Shown here: positions 79-45,400 of the stretch, one piece after another | Numbering within the stretch: position 1 is the first letter of the stretch | Layout of the letters: each line of letters begins with the position of its first letter | Assembly: GCF_045037415.1 (NCBI RefSeq) | Contig: NZ_CP173438.1 | Direction: 5' to 3' (one strand) | Length of the DNA: 64,000 nucleotides | Source: Escherichia coli | GTDB lineage: Bacteria; Pseudomonadota; Gammaproteobacteria; Enterobacterales; Enterobacteriaceae | Notes under the pieces: generated by a model | Databases searched by the model: none | What the model was told of the DNA's origin: nothing | The model's input: the letters and a program-made list of their open reading frames with translations, nothing else | Made by a program: the position numbers and the translations under genes

Positions 79-2511
79 TTACAACAACTGCGCCAGTCGG
101 TTAATATCCGACTGAATCGCCCCGGCGGTGACGTCGCGCCCTGCACCTGGCCCGCGGATCACCAGCGGGTTGTCGCGATACCAGCGGCTTTCGATGGCAA
201 AGACGTTATCGCATGGCAGTAGTGATGCCAGCGGATGGTCTTCACGCACCGCTTCCACGCCCACACGCGCTTTGCCATTGGCATCGAAACGCGCCACGTA
301 GCGCAGCACCAGCCCCATTTCGCGGGCCGCTTCCAGTCGTTGCACCATCTGCTCGTTAAGTTCATCGCCATTTTCAAAGAAATGGTCGATGCTGCCGCCT
401 TCGCAATGGGCAGGCACCAGTGATTCAACACGTACCTGGTCCGGTTCAATGTTGTAACCCGCTTCACGCGCCAGAATCACCAGCTTGCGCATTACGTCTT
501 TGCCGGAAAGGTCATCACGCGGGTCAGGTTCGGTTAAGCCTTGCTGCCACGCCTGATCCACCAGTTCGGTAAACGGCACGCTACCGTCGAATTGCAGGAA
601 CAGCCAGGAGAGCGTGCCGGAGAAGATCCCACTGATCGACAAAATGGTATCGCCGCTGTCGATCAGATCGCGCACGGTATGGTTGATCGGCAAACCCGCA
701 CCGACGGTGGCGTTGTACAGCCAGTGACGCCCGGTTTTTTCGAAGGCGTCGTGGATCTGGCGATATTTATTGCTGTCGCTTGCTCCTGCCAGTTTGTTGG
801 CACTGATGACGTGGAAACCGTGGCTGGCGAAATCAAGATACTGGTCAGCGAGCTGCTGGCTGGCGGTAACGTCCAGCACCACTAAATCATCATACGGATG
901 GGCGCGCATCCACAGGAACAGCGACTCTTCATCCTGCTCGACCGCTTCATCGTTGAAGAAGGCTAACGCGCGGCTGGCGTCCAGACCGTCATAGCTCAAC
1001 AGGCTACGGCGGCTGTCCACCACGCCTGCCAGCACAAATTCAAAGCCGGTACGTGCCGAAAGCGTACTCTGCTCACGGGCGAACAGTTCCAGCCAGCGGG
1101 AACCGATATTGCCCTTGCCGAACAATACCAGGCCGATGCGTTTTTCCGCGCGGAAGACGGACTGATGCAGCCCCTGAATCAGGCTTTCGGTCGGGCCGGT
1201 GCGCAGTACTGCCACCAGGCTGATGCCGTCATCGGACTGCCAGGTAAATTCGACCGGCTGGCCTTTCAGTTGCTGCCAGAAGCGGTGGCAATGCAGCGGG
1301 TTACGGGTGACGCCCGCCCCAACCATCGCCACCAGCGCCAGCCCCTGACGCAGGCGCAGTTCGCCAGGTAATCCCGCTTCGTCGAGGATTTTCAGCGCAC
1401 TGTCGGCCACTTCTGAGGTGTAGCAAAATTGCAGCAACTGGCGATCGTTATGCACGCCAACCGCCAGTGGACGTACCTGAGCACGTTTCAGGATCTGGTC
1501 GATCTCTTTATGCGCCAGTTTGAAATCCTGGCTGGCGGGCACCTGAAACTCAATCAAGCAGACATCATCATGGCTGGTGACAATACGCGCACCAGTACCG
1601 GAGGCCAGCACGCGTTCAATGCGCGTGGAACCTTGATCCGGCGTGTAGCTACAGCGCAGTTGCAGGTCGATTTCGCTGCCAGAAACGGGCTGTAAAGTAC
1701 GGGCATGAAGAACGGGAGCCGCCAGACGCGCCAGTTCGCTGGCTTCATCCAGACGCAGCAACGGCAGCAGGCAGGCATCTTTCACTTTACGCGGGTCGGC
1801 GCTATATACCCCGGCGACGTCGCTCCAGATGGTTACGCGAGAAACACCCGCCAGCGCACCGATTTGTGTCGCGGAATAGTCGGAACCGTTACGCCCCAGC
1901 AGCACCGTTTCACCGGCGTTGTTACGGCTGATAAACCCGGTCACCACCAGACGTTTGCCCGGATGTTGTACCAGTAGCTGTTGCAGCAACGGGTAAGAAA
2001 GCCCTTCATCAACCTGCGGTTGCGCAGCGCGTTCAGCGCGTAAAAACTCGCGGGCATCAAGCCAGGCCGATGGCAGCCCTTGTTGATTAAGCACCGCAGA
2101 CATCAGGCGCGCCGACCACACTTCACCGTGGCCCACCACTTCCGCATACACCGCATCGTTAATACCGCTGTCGAGCAACGCCGCCAGGCGCTCAAGATCG
2201 CTGACAAAAGCGCTAATGAGGTTATCGGCTTCTTCGGCGGGTAGCAGGCCGCTAATCAGATCGCACTGATAACGACGTAATGTTTGTTGAACCTGATGCG
2301 CAGAGAGACGATCGGTCTGGCTTAGTTTCAACCAGTTAATCAACTGGTTAGTGGTGCTACCGGCGGCGGAAACCACCATCATATCGTCAGGCTGAGAGTA
2401 CTCCGCCATAATGCCCGCGACACGCAAATAACACTTCACATCAGCCAGACTACTGCCACCAAATTTATGCAGTTGACGACCTTTCGCCCCTGCCTGCGCA
2501 ATCACACTCAT
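79..2511 (-). CDS. metL: bifunctional aspartokinase II / homoserine dehydrogenase II
   Basis: 810-aa ORF with N-terminal aspartokinase and C-terminal homoserine dehydrogenase regions; starts 2 nt after the metB stop, as in the metBL operon. Confidence 0.93.
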   Translation of the reverse strand: MSVIAQAGAKGRQLHKFGGSSLADVKCYLRVAGIMAEYSQPDDMMVVSAAGSTTNQLINWLKLSQTDRLSAHQVQQTLRRYQCDLISGLLPAEEADNLISAFVSDLERLAALLDSGINDAVYAEVVGHGEVWSARLMSAVLNQQGLPSAWLDAREFLRAERAAQPQVDEGLSYPLLQQLLVQHPGKRLVVTGFISRNNAGETVLLGRNGSDYSATQIGALAGVSRVTIWSDVAGVYSADPRKVKDACLLPLLRLDEASELARLAAPVLHARTLQPVSGSEIDLQLRCSYTPDQGSTRIERVLASGTGARIVTSHDDVCLIEFQVPASQDFKLAHKEIDQILKRAQVRPLAVGVHNDRQLLQFCYTSEVADSALKILDEAGLPGELRLRQGLALVAMVGAGVTRNPLHCHRFWQQLKGQPVEFTWQSDDGISLVAVLRTGPTESLIQGLHQSVFRAEKRIGLVLFGKGNIGSRWLELFAREQSTLSARTGFEFVLAGVVDSRRSLLSYDGLDASRALAFFNDEAVEQDEESLFLWMRAHPYDDLVVLDVTASQQLADQYLDFASHGFHVISANKLAGASDSNKYRQIHDAFEKTGRHWLYNATVGAGLPINHTVRDLIDSGDTILSISGIFSGTLSWLFLQFDGSVPFTELVDQAWQQGLTEPDPRDDLSGKDVMRKLVILAREAGYNIEPDQVRVESLVPAHCEGGSIDHFFENGDELNEQMVQRLEAAREMGLVLRYVARFDANGKARVGVEAVREDHPLASLLPCDNVFAIESRWYRDNPLVIRGPGAGRDVTAGAIQSDINRLAQLL

Positions 2512-4996: not shown

Positions 4997-5248
<252 letters not shown>

Positions 5249-5252
5249 CTAA

Positions 5253-7610
<2,358 letters not shown>

Positions 7611-9879: not shown

Positions 9880-9899
9880 CCCCGTACTTTTGTACGGGG
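9880..9899 (+). other. perfect 8-bp stem-loop in the hslVU 5' leader
   Basis: CCCCGTAC-TTTT-GTACGGGG, 35 nt upstream of the hslV ATG. Confidence 0.45.
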
Positions 9900-9934
9900 T
9901 TTGTACTCTGTATTCGTAACCAAGGGGTCAGCTC

Positions 9935-10465
9935 GTGACAACTATAGTAAGCGTACGCCGTAACGGCCATGTGGTCATCGCTGGTGATGGTCAGGCCACG
10001 TTGGGCAATACCGTAATGAAAGGCAACGTGAAAAAGGTCCGCCGTCTGTACAACGACAAAGTCATCGCGGGCTTTGCGGGCGGTACTGCGGATGCTTTTA
10101 CGCTGTTCGAACTGTTTGAACGTAAACTGGAAATGCATCAGGGCCATCTGGTCAAAGCCGCCGTTGAGCTGGCGAAAGACTGGCGTACCGATCGCATGCT
10201 GCGCAAACTTGAAGCACTGCTGGCAGTCGCGGATGAAACTGCATCGCTTATCATCACCGGTAACGGTGACGTGGTGCAGCCAGAAAACGATCTTATTGCT
10301 ATCGGCTCCGGCGGCCCTTACGCCCAGGCTGCGGCGCGCGCGCTGTTAGAAAACACTGAACTTAGCGCCCGTGAAATTGCTGAAAAGGCGTTGGATATTG
10401 CAGGCGACATTTGCATCTATACCAACCATTTCCACACCATCGAAGAATTAAGCTACAAAGCGTAA
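9935..10465 (+). CDS. hslV: ATP-dependent protease subunit HslV
   Basis: 176 aa; N-terminal Thr ([20 protein letters not shown]) typical of proteasome-like HslV. Confidence 0.95.
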
Positions 10466-16516: not shown

Positions 16517-16612
16517 GCCTGATGCGACGCTTGCGCGTCTTATCAGGCCTACGAGTCGGATACACATCCGGCATCACGCAGACTCTGAAACCGTGCGGGG
16601 GCAACCCCGCAC
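16517..16612. repeat. REP element plus GCAA-tetraloop hairpin in the glpK-glpX intergenic region
   Basis: GCCTGATGCGACGCTTGCGCGTCTTATCAGGCCTAC (16517-16552) and GTGCGGGG-GCAA-CCCCGCAC (16593-16612). Confidence 0.6.
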
Positions 16613-23589: not shown

Positions 23590-23686
23590 GCCGGATGCGG
23601 CACAAACGCCTTATCCGGCCTACAAAAGTTTGCAAATTCAATAGATTACAGAATTCATGTAGGCCTGATAAGCGAAGCGCATCAGG
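23590..23686. repeat. REP pair (BIME) between pfkA and sbp
   Basis: GCCGGATGCGGCACAAACGCCTTATCCGGCCTAC and inverted GTAGGCCTGATAAGCGAAGCGCATCAGGC. Confidence 0.65.
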
Positions 23687-28679: not shown

Positions 28680-28816
28680 GCCTGATGCACTACGCTTATC
28701 AGGCCTACAAAACCTGTTGAATTTATGGGTTTTGTAGGCTGGATAAGGCGTTTACGCCGCATCCGGCATTTGAGCAGGATGCCTGATGCGACGCTGATAG
28801 CGTCTTATCAGGCCTA
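28680..28816. repeat. cluster of three REP elements (BIME) downstream of cpxA
   Basis: GCCTGATGCACTACGCTTATCAGGCCTAC, GTAGGCTGGATAAGGCGTTTACGCCGCATCCGGC and GCCTGATGCGACGCTGATAGCGTCTTATCAGGCCTAC. Confidence 0.65.
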
Positions 28817-28826
28817 CACTCCGGGG

Positions 28827-34750: not shown

Positions 34751-37600
<2,850 letters not shown>

Positions 37601-37605
37601 ACACT

Positions 37606-37823
37606 GCCGGATGCGGCACAAGTGCCTTATCCGGCCTACGGGTCGGCAATAGTTGTAGGCCTGATAAGACGCGACAGCGTCGCATCAGGCATTGATTGCC
37701 GGATGCGGCACGAGTGCCTTATCCGGCCTACGGGTCAGCAACAGTTGTAGGCCTGATAAGACGCGACAGCGTCGCATCAGGCATTGATTGCCGGATGTGG
37801 CGCGAGTGCCTTATCCGGCCTAC
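37606..37823. repeat. tandem BIME array (five REP elements, 92-bp period) between rhaA and rhaD
   Basis: alternating GCCGGATGCGGCAC(A/G)AGTGCCTTATCCGGCCTAC and GTAGGCCTGATAAGACGCGACAGCGTCGCATCAGGC units at 37606, 37655, 37698, 37747 and 37790. Confidence 0.75.
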
Positions 37824-37866
37824 AGGTCGTGCATCCGACAACACCGAATTAACAGGAACACAGAAC

Positions 37867-38691
37867 ATGCAAAACATAACCCAGTCCTGGTTTGTCCAGG
37901 GAATGATCAAAGCCACCACCGATGCCTGGCTGAAAGGCTGGGACGAGCGCAACGGCGGCAACCTGACGCTGCGCCTGGATGACGCCGATATCGCACCATA
38001 TCACGACAATTTTCACCAACAACCGCGCTATATCCCGCTCAGCCAGCCCATGCCTTTACTGGCAAATACACCGTTTATTGTCACCGGCTCCGGCAAATTC
38101 TTCCGTAACGTCCAGCTTGATCCTGCGGCTAACTTAGGCATCGTAAAAGTCGACAGCGACGGCGCGGGCTACCACATTCTTTGGGGGTTAACCAACGAAG
38201 CCGTTCCCACTTCTGAACTTCCGGCTCACTTTCTCTCCCACTGCGAGCGCATTAAAGCCACCAACGGTAAAGATCGGGTGATCATGCACTGCCACGCCAC
38301 CAACCTGATCGCCCTCACCTATGTACTTGAAAACGACACCGCGGTCTTCACTCGCCAACTGTGGGAAGGCAGCACCGAGTGTCTGGTGGTATTCCCGGAT
38401 GGCGTTGGCATTCTGCCGTGGATGGTGCCCGGCACGGACGAAATCGGCCAGGCAACTGCACAAGAGATGCAAAAACATTCGCTGGTGTTGTGGCCCTTCC
38501 ACGGTGTGTTCGGCAGCGGGCCGACGCTGGATGAAACCTTCGGTTTAATCGACACCGCAGAAAAATCAGCACAAGTATTAGTGAAGGTTTATTCGATGGG
38601 CGGCATGAAACAGACCATCAGCCGTGAAGAGTTGATAGCGCTCGGCCAGCGTTTCGGCGTTACACCACTCGCCAGTGCGCTGGCGCTGTAA
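37867..38691 (+). CDS. rhaD: rhamnulose-1-phosphate aldolase
   Basis: ORF track start at 37696 runs through the REP array; the ATG at 37867 ([21 protein letters not shown]) gives 274 aa. Confidence 0.93.
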
Positions 38692-39055: not shown

Positions 39056-40450
39056 TCAGAAGAAGTATTTAAAGCGAACGCGTGCGCCGTAACGGTCATC
39101 ACTATCGTCGCCGTGTATCTTATCGCCGTCGCTATCCAGAATGGAGTAATACGTGCCGAGGTAAATATTAAAGTTCTCCATATCCATCACATTAGCGAAC
39201 TGATAAGACGCATGAATGGTGTGAATGTTGTATGTTCCTTCATCATCAATCCAGCAATCGTTATCACAAACCACGCCACTAAATTCATCAATCTTATTAT
39301 GTGCGTAGATATAACCCAGCTCGAAACGTTTCCACAGCGCGTTAATCCCAGCGGTGAAATCTTTCTCATTATTAGCATCTAAATAGGCGGTATTAAGATT
39401 AACCACGATGCCATTTTCCGGATCGGTTTTCAGGCCATTCCAGGTCATGCTCATGCCATAACCGGTACGATCGGACTGATCGACAAAATTACCCTTGCTA
39501 TCGGTATAACCATAAGCATTATTTACCACGTTCGCTTCCATCGCTGCGGAAACGGTGAATTCTTCCGTCGGCGACCAGGCAATTACCGGACGCAGATAAG
39601 CAACATTTTTCTGCTGTTCCATATCGCGTCCATGATAATTACCGTCGTTATATAAAGATGTTCCGTCTTCCAGTAACGTGTTTAATTCAAAATACCAGTT
39701 ATCGAGTTGTTTGCTGACGAGGAAATTACCGCCAGCGTTAGAACGCCCGCGGCCCTCTTTCATCATATAGATATAACCGCTGCCATCGTCATAAAGATCG
39801 TTCGCAGTATTACCGGAATGTTCAACAAAGGTATCCTGATTCAGCGGGAACATATCGTAGGCTTCAAAACGGCCTACTTTGACCTTCCAGTCGTTTTCTT
39901 TGCCAAAGAAGAAAACCGCATCATCGATATTTACTGAACCGTGCATATCCCCCAGCGGTTGTGCGGAGAACCCAGCGAAATAGCCATTATCCAGTTTTCG
40001 CATACCATCAAAACCTAACAGAATACGACCATTGAGATTCCACTGTTCATTAGTGGGATCGCTATTCACATCAGCGTTGGTCATTGCCAGCAGGCCATGA
40101 TTACTTTCCGCATCCATATTAAATTCTACGTCACCGTAGATTTTTAAATCGCCATACCCTGAAAGCAGGAGATTAGGCGGGGTGGCGTTTTTCTTCTCTG
40201 ACTCCGTCGTTGATTGACCGTTTACCGGCGTGTTGCCCTGTGCGGTTTTAATTTCGCGGATCTCGGCGGCTTGTTGTGTCTGAAGCTGTTTAACCTGCCC
40301 CTCTGCTTTTGCTGCCCGCATTTCTGCCGCTTCCAGGCGTTCTTCCAGCAATGCCATGCGTTGTTCCAGCGTTAAATGCTGTGTTTTTGCCATACCGGTA
40401 CTACATGCCAATAATAAACCGATGGCTAAAGATAATGTCGATTTTTTCAT
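39056..40450 (-). CDS. putative outer-membrane sugar-porin-like protein with N-terminal coiled-coil
   Basis: 464 aa; signal peptide MKKSTLSLAIGLLLACSTGMA, about 50 aa of heptad-like Ala/Glu/Gln-rich sequence, then an aromatic-rich region ending in the C-terminal FKYFF typical of beta-barrel OMPs; AGGGAA Shine-Dalgarno 8 nt upstream; family assignment is from memory of ScrY/RafY-type glycoporins and is uncertain. Confidence 0.65.
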   Translation of the reverse strand: MKKSTLSLAIGLLLACSTGMAKTQHLTLEQRMALLEERLEAAEMRAAKAEGQVKQLQTQQAAEIREIKTAQGNTPVNGQSTTESEKKNATPPNLLLSGYGDLKIYGDVEFNMDAESNHGLLAMTNADVNSDPTNEQWNLNGRILLGFDGMRKLDNGYFAGFSAQPLGDMHGSVNIDDAVFFFGKENDWKVKVGRFEAYDMFPLNQDTFVEHSGNTANDLYDDGSGYIYMMKEGRGRSNAGGNFLVSKQLDNWYFELNTLLEDGTSLYNDGNYHGRDMEQQKNVAYLRPVIAWSPTEEFTVSAAMEANVVNNAYGYTDSKGNFVDQSDRTGYGMSMTWNGLKTDPENGIVVNLNTAYLDANNEKDFTAGINALWKRFELGYIYAHNKIDEFSGVVCDNDCWIDDEGTYNIHTIHASYQFANVMDMENFNIYLGTYYSILDSDGDKIHGDDSDDRYGARVRFKYFF

Positions 40451-40803: not shown

Positions 40804-41349
40804 TTACGACTTCGTGACATATCCGTGCTCATCACAAACCCGCCCCGCGATTACAATTAACTGAAATATTTCATCGACCATTTCGTTGTAATCGCATAAC
40901 GCTCGTGGAAATGAGTCTTCGGCCATCCAGCTTGAGTTTGCGTCCTGAAGTTGCTCTTTATCCCAGTCAGAGTACGGGACTTTATCTCTGATGCGGCGAA
41001 CGTATTTTTTAGCCTCGAGTTGATACTGGCCTGCCGAATTAATAAACGAGAAATTCATGCCGCTTTTATCCGCTTCTTTGGCTTGCGCCACCAGCGTTTC
41101 CAGTTCAGACACTTTCTTCATTGCCGCTTCTGCATCAAACTTATCTTGCGATATCAGGTTATTAATTTGTTTCGCTGAAATCATGACTGCCAGAGAGTAG
41201 TAGTGGAATGTTTTCCCTTTCGCAAACGCATCGTCTTTATAATTTTCCTGGGTGTAATATTTATCCATTTCGTTAATGGTATTACCCAACGCTACGGCAG
41301 CATCAATATAACTCACCGCCACGCCATCAATAGGTTGCAGCGCAGGCAT
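40804..41349 (-). CDS. hypothetical helical protein (K-12 yiiG position; homology unverified)
   Basis: 184-aa ORF from a GTG at 41358, or 181 aa from the ATG at 41349; no signal peptide; begins just after a hairpin downstream of fdhD. Confidence 0.45.
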   Translation of the reverse strand: MPALQPIDGVAVSYIDAAVALGNTINEMDKYYTQENYKDDAFAKGKTFHYYSLAVMISAKQINNLISQDKFDAEAAMKKVSELETLVAQAKEADKSGMNFSFINSAGQYQLEAKKYVRRIRDKVPYSDWDKEQLQDANSSWMAEDSFPRALCDYNEMVDEIFQLIVIAGRVCDEHGYVTKS

Positions 41350-41402
41350 TAACGCCACTACACGCGTTTTGTTTATAAAAAAATAACAAAATTCACGAAA
41401 TG

Positions 41403-42472: not shown

Positions 42473-45400
42473 ATGCAGGTCAGCAGAAGGCAGTTCTTTA
42501 AGATCTGCGCTGGCGGTATGGCAGGCACCACGGCAGCGGCACTGGGTTTTGCACCCAGCGTAGCACTCGCGGAAACCCGGCAGTATAAACTGCTGCGCAC
42601 CCGCGAAACCCGTAATACCTGCACCTATTGTTCCGTAGGCTGTGGGCTGTTGATGTACAGCCTCGGTGACGGAGCAAAAAACGCCAAAGCATCTATCTTC
42701 CATATCGAAGGTGACCCGGATCACCCGGTCAACCGCGGAGCACTTTGTCCGAAAGGCGCTGGCCTGGTGGATTTCATCCACTCCGAAAGCCGTCTGAAGT
42801 TTCCGGAATACCGTGCGCCAGGTTCTGATAAATGGCAGCAAATCAGTTGGGAAGAGGCGTTTGATCGCATCGCCAAACTGATGAAAGAAGACCGCGATGC
42901 AAACTACATTGCGCAAAACGCCGAAGGCGTGACTGTTAACCGCTGGCTCTCCACCGGGATGCTGTGTGCTTCCGCGTCGAGCAACGAAACCGGCTATTTA
43001 ACGCAAAAATTCTCCCGCGCGCTGGGTATGCTCGCGGTCGACAACCAGGCGCGTGTCTGACACGGACCAACGGTAGCAAGTCTTGCTCCAACATTTGGTC
43101 GCGGTGCGATGACCAACCACTGGGTCGACATCAAGAATGCCAACCTCGTCGTGGTGATGGGCGGTAACGCCGCTGAAGCTCACCCGGTCGGGTTCCGCTG
43201 GGCGATGGAAGCCAAAATTCACAACGGCGCGAAGCTGATTGTGATCGATCCTCGCTTTACGCGTACAGCGGCGGTGGCTGACTACTATGCCCCTATCCGT
43301 TCCGGTACTGACATTGCTTTCCTGTCAGGCGTATTGCTGTACCTGCTGAACAATGAAAAATTCAACCGCGAATACACCGAAGCCTATACCAACGCTAGCC
43401 TGATCGTGCGTGAGGATTACGGCTTTGAAGATGGCCTGTTCACCGGCTACGACGCGGAAAAACGCAAGTACGATAAGTCCACCTGGACTTACGAACTGGA
43501 CGAAAACGGCTTCGCCAAACGCGATACTACCCTGCAACATCCACGTTGCGTGTGGAACTTGCTGAAACAGCACGTTTCCCGCTACACGCCAGATGTGGTT
43601 GAAAACATCTGCGGTACGCCAAAAGACGCATTCCTGAAAGTCTGCGAATACATCGCAGAGACCAGTGCTCACGATAAAACTGCCTCGTTCCTTTACGCCC
43701 TCGGCTGGACGCAACACTCCATCGGTGCGCAGAACATCCGTACGATGGCGATGATCCAGTTGCTGCTCGGCAATATGGGGATGGCTGGCGGCGGCGTTAA
43801 CGCCCTGCGCGGTCACTCCAATATTCAGGGGCTGACGGACCTGGGGCTGCTGTCGCAGAGTCTGCCAGGTTACATGACGCTGCCAAGCGAGAAGCAGACC
43901 GATCTGCAAACTTACCTTACCGCCAACACGCCGAAACCACTGCTGGAAGGCCAGGTTAACTACTGGGGCAACTACCCGAAATTCTTCGTCTCTATGATGA
44001 AGGCCTTCTTTGGTGATAAAGCGACGGCGGAAAATAGCTGGGGCTTTGACTGGTTGCCGAAGTGGGATAAAGGCTACGACGTCCTGCAATACTTCGAGAT
44101 GATGAAAGAGGGCAAGGTCAATGGCTATATCTGCCAGGGCTTTAACCCTGTTGCCTCATTCCCGAACAAAAACAAAGTGATCGGCTGTCTGTCGAAGCTG
44201 AAATTCCTCGTGACTATCGACCCGCTGAACACTGAAACCTCTAACTTCTGGCAGAACCACGGTGAACTGAACGAAGTTGACTCGTCGAAGATCCAGACCG
44301 AAGTGTTCCGTCTGCCATCGACCTGCTTCGCGGAAGAGAACGGTTCAATCGTTAACTCTGGTCGCTGGTTGCAGTGGCACTGGAAAGGTGCGGACGCCCC
44401 GGGGATTGCGCTGACTGATGGCGAGATCCTCTCCGGTATCTTCCTGCGCTTGCGCAAGATGTATGCCGAACAGGGTGGCGCGAACCCGGACCAGGTGCTG
44501 AACATGACCTGGAACTACGCCATCCCGCATGAGCCGAAGTCGGAAGAAGTGGCGATGGAGAGCAACGGTAAGGCGCTGGCCGATATTACCGATCCGGCAA
44601 CCGGTGCGGTTATTGTCAAGAAAGGCCAACAACTTAGCTCGTTCGCTCAACTGCGCGATGACGGTACAACCTCCTGTGGCTGCTGGATTTTCGCCGGTAG
44701 CTGGACGCCAGAAGGCAACCAGATGGCGCGTCGTGATAACGCCGATCCGTCTGGCCTCGGTAACACGCTGGGCTGGGCATGGGCATGGCCGCTTAACCGC
44801 CGCATTCTGTATAACCGCGCCTCCGCAGATCCGCAGGGTAACCCGTGGGATCCGAAGCGTCAGTTGCTGAAATGGGACGGCACTAAGTGGACCGGCTGGG
44901 ATATTCCGGACTACAGCGCAGCGCCTCCGGGCAGTGGCGTCGGGCCGTTTATCATGCAGCAGGAAGGCATGGGGCGTCTGTTTGCCCTCGATAAGATGGC
45001 GGAAGGTCCGTTCCCGGAACACTACGAGCCGTTTGAAACGCCGCTGGGAACTAACCCGCTGCATCCAAACGTTATCTCGAATCCGGCGGCGCGTATCTTT
45101 AAAGACGATGCCGAAGCATTGGGGAAAGCCGATAAGTTCCCGTATGTCGGAACCACCTATCGTCTGACCGAGCACTTCCACTACTGGACCAAACACGCGC
45201 TGTTGAACGCGATTTTGCAACCAGAGCAGTTTGTGGAAATCGGGGAGTCGCTGGCGAATAAACTTGGCATTGCCCAGGGCGATACTGTGAAAGTCTCCTC
45301 CAACCGTGGCTATATCAAAGCCAAAGCGGTAGTGACCAAACGTATTCGCACGCTGAAAGCAAACGGCAAAGATATCGATACCATCGGTATTCCGATTCAC

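Follow-up and report, generated by a model that had tools for sequence, protein, structure and literature searches.

The analyzed window, a 64,000-nucleotide stretch of an Escherichia coli genome, carries the rha genes, of which rhaB, rhaA, rhaD and rhaM are all encoded on the + strand. Full-length matches to NCBIfam equivalogs were obtained for rhaA and rhaD as well as for the surrounding rhaB, rhaS, rhaR and rhaM, and the gene order agrees with that of E. coli genomes such as SK1144 and LF82. Residues 1-273 of RhaD align to positions 1-273 of the 274 positions of the NF002963 profile. Since rhaA ends at position 37600 and rhaD starts at 37867, the region 37601-37866 is exactly the rhaA-rhaD spacer with a length of 266 bp. 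The features of the spacer and its borders are listed in Table 1.

Table 1. Features of the rhaA-rhaD region (positions refer to the 64,000-nt window; energies are predicted for RNA hairpins)
Feature	Position	Strand	Evidence or remark
rhaA (L-rhamnose isomerase) CDS	36341..37600	+	NCBIfam TIGR01748/NF002203 equivalogs, E ~1e-248, full length; RefSeq annotation of the identical SK1144 sequence
rhaA stop codon TAA	37598-37600	+	
5-nt lead ACACT, rhaA stop codon to first REP stem	37601..37605	+	identical in 14 of 14 alleles examined
REP 1, Y type (GCCGGATGCGGCACAAGTGCCTTATCCGGCCTAC)	37606..37639	+	hairpin -20.0 kcal/mol
15-nt linker (GGGTCGGCAATAGTT), Y to inverted Z2	37640..37654	+	
REP 2, inverted Z2 type (GTAGGCCTGATAAGACGCGACAGCGTCGCATCAGGC)	37655..37690	-	hairpin -20.5 kcal/mol; aligns to the Z2 hairpin of the Rfam naRNA4 model
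7-nt linker ATTGATT, inverted Z2 to Y	37691..37697	+	
REP 3, Y type	37698..37731	+	hairpin -20.0 kcal/mol; aligns to the Y hairpin of the naRNA4 model
15-nt linker (GGGTCAGCAACAGTT)	37732..37746	+	
REP 4, inverted Z2 type	37747..37782	-	hairpin -20.5 kcal/mol
7-nt linker ATTGATT	37783..37789	+	
REP 5, Y type (GCCGGATGTGGCGCGAGTGCC... variant)	37790..37823	+	hairpin -19.4 kcal/mol
Unique 43-nt tail	37824..37866	+	sequence; predicted mostly unpaired
rhaD Shine-Dalgarno AGGA	37854-37857	+	in the unique tail, 9 nt before ATG
rhaD (rhamnulose-1-phosphate aldolase) CDS, true start ATG 37867	37867..38691	+	NCBIfam NF002963; RefSeq start in the identical SK1144 locus
Rfam RF02564 (naRNA4) match, one Y-Z2 pair	37658-37728	-	74.4 bits; gathering score 59.5
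Rfam RF02564 (naRNA4) match, one Y-Z2 pair	37750-37820	-	68.9 bits; gathering score 59.5
Spurious 57-codon 5' extension of the rhaD ORF, TTG start	37696..37866	+	in-frame TGA 37693-37695; non-coding

Tandem Repeats Finder detected a single array at 37605-37828 with a period of 92, 2.4 copies, 95% matches, no indels and a score of 406, and a repeat search recovered three 92-nt copies in register. Parsing of the REP pattern revealed exactly five REPs in the order Y+, Z2-, Y+, Z2-, Y+. All five are imperfect palindromes of about 34-36 nt in the frame GCCKGATG...CTTATCMGGCCTAC with a GTAG/CTAC end, and each of them forms a hairpin with -19.4 to -20.5 kcal/mol that includes an internal mismatch. 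They are extragenic, as all five are located between the rhaA stop and the rhaD start, and they are members of a multicopy family. In the 64-kb window, 11 occurrences of the REP motif CTTATCMGGCCTAC were counted, compared to 0.03 expected, with five of the 11 in the rhaA-rhaD spacer and six elsewhere. A 300-nt RNA covering the region folds with -138.6 kcal/mol (z = -7.1). By motif count and by RNA folding, the array is far beyond chance. The five alternating REPs with a 92-bp period and about 2.4 units that had been named in the original prediction were borne out by Tandem Repeats Finder and pattern parsing, as was its statement that the array fills the intergenic region: REPs and linkers together occupy 218 of the 266 nt.

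BIME-2 elements were defined by Bachellier, as restated by Ton-Hoang et al. (PMC3333891), by alternating y and z2 REPs in tandem with short linkers, the lack of an IHF linker and a copy number that varies between strains. The rhaA-rhaD array shows all of these sequence-level features, i.e., alternating y/z2 REPs, a tandem arrangement of 2.4 x 92 bp, linkers of 15 and 7 nt and a variable copy number, and the IHF consensus WATCAANNNNTTR, searched on both strands of the array, gave no match. BIME-1 elements (RIP/RIB) likewise consist of inverted REP pairs, but they combine y with z1, contain a long L linker with an IHF site and are present as a single copy (PMC3333891), whereas the array studied here has z2 REPs, linkers of 7 and 15 nt and a tandem structure. 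A reading as BIME-1 or IHF site was rejected, as the IHF consensus is missing and the partner REP is Z2 and not Z1. The REPs align with high posterior probability and near-identical sequence to the Y and Z2 hairpins of the Rfam model RF02564, which was built from REP325.

A counterpart of the array is found in E. coli K-12. The spacer of K-12 MG1655 is longer, with nine such REPs in 450 bp. According to EcoCyc, the K-12 element is REP299a-i, described as "within an operon (rhaBAD)"; among the eight REP regions of interest no other is inside an operon, and it is located at most 15 nt from the upstream gene (bioRxiv 10.1101/2024.07.17.603846). Lead, Y/Z2 units, 15- and 7-nt linkers, 92-bp period and unique tail are all shared, so that both elements are orthologous. 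They differ in size, with nine REPs in 450 bp in K-12 and five REPs in 266 bp here. Point differences are further found at a few positions of the Y loops and at one position of the tail (TTAACAGG versus TTTACAGG). Since K-12 REP299 holds nine orthologous REPs, the spacer represents a shorter allele of a catalogued element. The array is, with near certainty, a five-REP allele of the BIME-2 element known as REP299 in K-12. The element as such is already known, being catalogued in K-12, and REP/BIME arrays have been known since the 1980s.

For the comparison of copy number between strains, flank-only queries composed of the 3' end of rhaA and the 5' end of rhaD were searched against 5,402-5,426 complete E. 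coli genomes, and the spacer length was taken from the span of the hits. The 116 distinct genomes considered here represent two evenly spaced samples. As the sampling was non-random and laboratory derivatives of K-12 are abundant in RefSeq, the allele frequencies are rough. A single REP in a spacer of 82 bp with no other insert was found in 30 of the 116 genomes (about 26%), and 17 of 116 have a spacer of 241 bp in which one REP is combined with an unrelated 179-bp insert. Three REPs occur in 22 of 116 genomes (174, 176 or 184 bp) and five REPs, the number present here, in 16 of 116 (about 14%; 266 or 276 bp). Larger arrays have seven REPs (358 bp, 2 of 116), nine REPs (447, 450 or 460 bp, 28 of 116) or 13 REPs (634 bp, 1 of 116).

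Fourteen alleles were fetched and parsed. In these, the number of REPs is always odd, a Y REP is located at both ends and the alleles differ by whole 92-bp units, while the series of 184-, 276- and 460-bp spacers is explained by a separate 10-bp indel in the unique tail. REP 1 is kept in every allele examined, and an allele with zero REPs was not found among those. A one-REP genome (L135) and a nine-REP genome of the K-12 type (L136) show 0 SNPs in 800 nt of flank, and the same was observed for a one-REP genome of serotype O157:H7 (L011) and a genome with three REPs (L004). B2-like flanks that are 3-11 SNPs distant from the locus studied here carry alleles of 82, 184, 266, 276 and 460 bp. As identical flanks differ in REP number, the locus changes quickly and faster than its flanks gain SNPs. 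For the steps of whole units, the simplest explanation is slippage or unequal recombination between direct repeats of 92 bp. A published alternative route is recombination by TnpAREP, which is able to recombine BIMEs in vitro (PMC3333891), and a REP-associated transposase possibly helps in the gain and loss of units. Chimeric Y/Z2 REPs, present in one further allele (L005) and as the seventh REP of K-12, point by their sequence to exchange or recombination among the copies.

The variation of copy number between strains that the original prediction had proposed is thus confirmed, with one to 13 REPs in the 116 sampled genomes even where flanks are identical. It had named an array that is invariant across strains as evidence against this; the comparison across the 116 genomes was such a check, and the array is far from invariant. 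Its description of the array as "expanded" is not supported and is misleading, since K-12 has nine REPs in 450 bp and one strain 13 REPs in 634 bp, so that five REPs are mid-range; the term is true only relative to the one-REP allele. Coexistence of alleles with one to 13 REPs in closely related strains fits weak or no selection on copy number.

The same junction was inspected in other Enterobacterales. A conserved RhaD motif was used for a scan with one genome per species, and the matches listed were mostly from Firmicutes, with at least 10 from Enterobacterales; Salmonella, Shigella, E. albertii and E. fergusonii are not among the listed Enterobacterales matches. In Yersinia aldovae, Budvicia diplopodorum and Acerihabitans arboris the rhaA-rhaD spacer is only about 10 nt long and contains only a Shine-Dalgarno sequence, and in Enterobacter sp. 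BIGb0383 it has 35 nt with no repeat noted. Citrobacter sp. FP75 carries one REP-like hairpin in a spacer of about 60 nt and Enterobacter sp. Bisph1 a different single REP-like hairpin in 66 nt. The spacer of Enterobacter cloacae (121 nt) contains a GC-rich palindromic element, whose terminal inverted repeats are shared with the insert of the 241-bp allele of E. coli; this insert is present in full length in 787 of 5,426 E. coli genomes (about 14.5%). The longest spacer of this series, with 466 nt, was found in Superficieibacter electus and harbors one Y-like REP and 8.2 copies of a 49-bp repeat. Judged from these sequences, the ancestral junction was probably short, and hairpin repeats of different kinds have come to occupy it on several occasions. 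Such repeated filling may reflect mere tolerance of insertions at this site.

Regarding transcription, a consensus scan of positions 37300-38100 detected neither a sigma-70-like promoter nor an intrinsic terminator. The REPs are located within an operon, between the co-oriented genes rhaA and rhaD, and as the spacer contains no such promoter or terminator of its own, the array should be transcribed within rhaBAD. A function as intrinsic terminator was rejected, since the scan gave no terminator-like site and the REP stems are followed by GGGTC... or ATTGATT and not by a U tract. C/G is below 1 throughout the array, which makes it a poor and untypical Rho-loading site. Among the entries accessible in the list of Rho-binding REPs of bioRxiv 10.64898/2026.03.23.713779, REP297, 298 and 300 are present and REP299 was not found. 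A role as Rho loading site was rejected on both grounds, the second being limited to the accessible entries of that list.

According to RNA folding, each REP accounts for about -20 kcal/mol, and every further unit adds about -56 kcal/mol. The region from the Shine-Dalgarno sequence of rhaD to its AUG shows a mean probability of being unpaired of 0.77 in the allele studied here and of 0.53-0.78 across alleles with one to 13 REPs. Because this region is mostly unpaired in all of these alleles, copy number is not predicted to act by occluding the initiation of rhaD translation.

From these observations and from the known systems discussed below, we propose that the array would act within the rhaBAD mRNA, where it is predicted to form five hairpins of about -20 kcal/mol each. 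These REP hairpins may slow the 3'-to-5' exonucleolytic decay of the upstream rhaBA segment. In addition, the array could be a modest or weak attenuator by which some transcripts would be lost before rhaD, and the size of this effect would be expected to grow with the number of REPs, analogous to REP325 in yjdMN. REP 1, located 5 nt past the rhaA stop, may dampen RhaA translation via ribosome stalling, and translation of rhaD would start independently from the unpaired Shine-Dalgarno sequence in the unique tail. Taken as a whole, the explanation of a hypervariable five-REP BIME-2 allele inside rhaBAD with a putative role as mRNA decay barrier and attenuator appears moderately probable to us. 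For the narrower claim that the array has a measurable local effect on rha mRNA, the chances seem about even when judged by analogy.

Intercistronic REPs were reportedly proposed by Higgins in 1982 and Newbury in 1987 to block 3'-5' exonucleases. The classic cases malE-malF and hisJ-hisQ resemble the rha array in that REP hairpins are placed between promoter-proximal and distal genes of a polycistronic mRNA. With one to three REPs, these loci are smaller than the rha array with its five, and their role is directly supported by experiments. No experiments on the rhaA-rhaD REP array were found in the searchable literature.

The closest analogue is REP325, located between yjdM and yjdN and comprising naRNA1-6. 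In both arrays Y and Z2 REPs alternate between co-oriented operon genes, and one Rfam model matches both of them. The REP325 array consists of 12 hairpins with a period of 100 bp and an inner linker of 13 nt, whereas the rha array has five hairpins (nine in K-12), a 92-bp period and a linker of 7 nt. The two also differ in orientation. In K-12, the six REP325 units match the naRNA4 model RF02564 on the yjdM/yjdN sense strand with 95-111 bits, whereas the four rha units reach 69-77 bits and match the strand opposite to that of rhaA and rhaD. As these naRNA4 matches are antisense to rhaA/rhaD, the rha BIME-2 is inverted relative to operon transcription when compared to REP325. REP325 was described to stabilize the upstream yjdM and to reduce the downstream yjdN about 8-10-fold, partly through Rho; upon its deletion yjdN increased about 8-10-fold and yjdM decreased (bioRxiv 10.64898/2026.03.23.713779). 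The same study observed a ladder of truncated transcripts from the REP325 array and a Rho dependence only for the full array of 12 hairpins and none for fragments with 2-4 hairpins. In tandem gene pairs that contain REPs, the ratio of upstream to downstream RNA is raised genome-wide. Globally, mRNA half-lives were not lengthened by REPs, and the effects depended on context (bioRxiv 10.64898/2026.03.23.713779).

Published values for the RNA of rhaBA versus rhaD were found only for the AIEC strain LF82, which carries the 460-bp allele with nine REPs. The RPKM values for two conditions, whose column order is ambiguous, are 39/376 for rhaA, 65/452 for rhaB and 303/554 for rhaD. The RNA of rhaD is therefore never below that of rhaBA in these values (303 versus 39-65 and 554 versus 376-452 RPKM, with the same ambiguity of the columns). 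As rhaD RNA is equal to or above rhaBA RNA, this argues against strong attenuation. The high basal level of rhaD RNA in LF82 suggests a separate source or a greater stability of the rhaD segment. Upon induction, rhaD increases by about 250 RPKM and rhaA and rhaB by about 340-390 RPKM, so that the increment of rhaD is about two-thirds to three-quarters of theirs. This fits a partial loss across the array and is far from a proof of it.

The proposed role in rhaBAD mRNA has to be weighed against several other explanations. According to the first, the REPs form a selfish or neutral REPIN/BIME population that is tolerated in a non-essential spacer and expands or collapses via slippage, unequal recombination or REP-transposase activity, with copy number having no meaningful effect on rha expression. 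Several of the observations described above fit this explanation: copy number differs between genomes with identical flanks, alleles with one to 13 REPs coexist across lineages, about 26% of the sampled genomes keep one REP and no other insert, and the chimeric Y/Z2 REPs of L005 and K-12 point to recombination among copies, for which the in vitro activity of TnpAREP on BIMEs offers a route (PMC3333891). Effects of REPs on half-life are moreover not general (bioRxiv 10.64898/2026.03.23.713779). However, every allele seen still has the first REP, 5 nt past the stop codon, and none has zero REPs. Hairpin repeats of unrelated kinds are located at this junction in Citrobacter, Enterobacter and Superficieibacter, which could reflect selection or a merely permissive site, and five hairpins of about -20 kcal/mol within an mRNA are unlikely to be fully inert. 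Therefore, we consider a purely neutral array possible but rather unlikely.

A second explanation assigns a function to the stop-proximal REP only. It would stall terminating ribosomes on rhaA and lower RhaA via tmRNA-linked rescue and mRNA cleavage, and the downstream repeats would be passengers. In its summary of Liang et al. [quoted passage not shown] The stem of REP 1 begins 5 nt after the TAA of rhaA, within this limit of 15 nt as far as it is given in that summary, and REP299 has been named as falling within the limit (bioRxiv 10.1101/2024.07.17.603846). Being located 5 nt after the stop in every allele, rha REP 1 belongs to those REPs for which ribosome stalling and thereby a reduced translation of the preceding gene have been reported. 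All alleles share the lead and the first Y REP, whereas whatever follows differs between them. The conservation of the first REP would, however, also be the trivial outcome of unit-wise deletions that leave one Y REP. As a full account of the array, this explanation is possible but rather unlikely; its effect on RhaA is included in the role in rhaBAD mRNA that we favor.

A role at the DNA level was also considered, in which the BIME-2 array would be a binding and cleavage site of gyrase that relieves supercoiling from the strongly induced rhaBAD promoter. BIME-2 repeats were reported as gyrase targets (Espeli and Boccard 1997, as cited in a passage of PMC3333891), and the array agrees with the sequence definition of BIME-2. 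In addition, REP299 is among eight REP regions that were protected from exonuclease in mobilome sequencing of stressed K-12 (bioRxiv 10.1101/2024.07.17.603846). None of this is specific to the rhaA-rhaD locus, and many strains carry a single REP, which is not a BIME; a gyrase site thus seems improbable.

Even less probable, in our opinion, is that the junction is a selected "dial" which Enterobacteriaceae have independently filled with stable hairpin repeats of unrelated families. If this were true, the fast change of copy number in E. coli would tune the RhaD:RhaBA ratio, and hence the flux of rhamnulose-1-phosphate and lactaldehyde, to the niche. The finding itself is an ordinary one and matters little as a discovery. 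A strain-variable copy number is a published general property of BIME-2 elements, and it is now documented at rhaA-rhaD. The allele series from one to 13 REPs in clean 92-bp steps provides a natural experiment for the idea of "REPs as tunable dials" that was raised for REP325.

Two RF02564 matches in the array, both above the gathering score (Table 1), could suggest that its units encode naRNA4-like, HU-binding nucleoid-associated RNAs. The sense strand of rhaBAD yields 53.9 and 51.2 bits with this model, which is below the gathering score of 59.5. A naRNA4 gene would be transcribed in the orientation of the match, whereas the matches at this locus and in K-12 are antisense to rhaBAD, and no promoter-like site is present on that strand. 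The scores are also well under those of the true REP325 units, and the linker has 7 and not 13 nt. For REP325/naRNA4 itself, no measurable nucleoid compaction was reported (bioRxiv 10.64898/2026.03.23.713779). RF02564 matches another BIME in the window as well (28737-28814), and therefore the model recognizes generic Y-Z2 pairs. A true naRNA4 gene was rejected because of the antisense strand, the lower score, the shorter linker and the non-specific matches elsewhere, and naRNA4-like RNAs from this array are very improbable. For annotation, caution is advisable, since generic BIME-2 units are matched by the Rfam naRNA4 model on the strand that is not transcribed.

Finally, a coding function of the array, as an N-terminal extension of RhaD from the TTG at 37696, can practically be dismissed: an ORF of 331 aa does exist (37696-38691), but the alignment to the RhaD family profile begins with residue 1 at ATG 37867, where the RefSeq start is also located and which is preceded by a Shine-Dalgarno sequence, and the extension changes in length with REP copy number and is interrupted by the in-frame TGA at 37693. 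The over-long ORF starts inside the array directly after this TGA. It was correctly described before as extended into the array, but it does not run straight through the whole array and crosses only the 3' 171 nt of the spacer. ORF callers can thus stretch rhaD into the array, which deserves caution in the annotation of this locus.

Chimeric REPs were found in the arrays of K-12 and of a second E. coli sequence (L005), which suggests that REP types have recombined with, or been converted by, one another inside the array. The array of Superficieibacter electus at the same rhaA-rhaD junction is a repeat expansion independent of that in E. coli. Its spacer contains one Y REP like that of E. coli and, after it, a 49-bp unit repeated directly in tandem 8.2 times, which carries a different REP type (GCAGGCCCGGTAAGCGCAGCGCCACCGGGCAGG).

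A 241-bp rhaA-rhaD spacer is present in 787 of the 5,426 complete E. coli genomes (~14.5%), with a single Y REP followed by a GC-rich insert of 179 bp. The insert has long terminal inverted repeats (CCCTCACCCC.GCCCTCTCCC ... GGGGAGAGGGTTAGGGTGAGGG), a genome has related pieces at 3 sites (median), and a shorter member of its family is located at the rhaA-rhaD junction of Enterobacter cloacae. The complete genomes with a partial or no match to the flank query (rhaA 3' and rhaD 5' flanks) include some engineered strains. One of these is BW25113 (H60, NZ_CP193896.1), in which the query matched over its last 118 nt only; this is consistent with the known delta(rhaD-rhaB)568 deletion of this strain.

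In the AIEC strain LF82, basal rhaD RNA reached 303 RPKM compared to 39-65 for rhaA/rhaB (5-8x), and the fold change of rhaD was far below that of rhaA/rhaB (RNA-seq, PMC6379400 Table 4, in whose rha rows the two condition columns are apparently swapped relative to the paper's text). The high basal level together with the small fold change may point to a promoter close to rhaD that has gone unrecognised, or to a far more stable rhaD segment.

Further REP/BIME sites were identified in the window. The cluster of three REPs contains a match above threshold to the Rfam model naRNA4 (28737-28814, + strand, 82 bits). The Y/Z pair is overlapped by a match to Rfam ES036 (CssrF) at 23625-23666, which with 37.9 bits lies barely over the threshold.

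Feature coordinates in the window and in the fetched sequences
Feature	Sequence	Position	Strand	Remark
Chimeric REP	L005 (E. coli)	spacer 98-133		outer stems Y, inner stem-loop Z2; GCCGGATGCGACGCTGTCGCGTCTTATCCGGCCTAC
Chimeric REP	L001 (K-12)	spacer 282-315		half Y, half Z; …CTTATCAGGCCTAC
S. electus rhaA-rhaD spacer	L032	3256-3721		466 bp
E. coli XJ55 rhaA-rhaD spacer	L007	401-641		241-bp allele
E. cloacae rhaA-rhaD junction	L041	684-804		shorter member of insert family
LF82 rha locus	L138	18002-22012		
Three-REP cluster	window	28695-28817		
Y/Z REP pair	window	23610-23672		
Lone Z-type REP	window	16539-16552		
Region downstream of rhaM	window	39056-40450, 40804-41358	-, -	RafY-like porin
SECIS, formate dehydrogenase-O alpha subunit gene	window	43055-43113	+	Rfam
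ClpQY (hslVU) promoter element	window	9880-9937	+	Rfam
L31 ribosomal-protein leader	window	5216-5268	-	Rfam

In the window genome, the position downstream of rhaM that the frv genes occupy in K-12 holds the gene of a carbohydrate porin similar to RafY, which matches Pfam PF16966 at E = 8e-155. LF82 shares the layout of this region, where a DUF3829 pseudogene adjoins the porin; therefore, the window is derived from a B2-like genome. The SECIS, the ClpQY promoter element and the L31 leader are cis-elements that are expected and ordinary in this chromosomal region.
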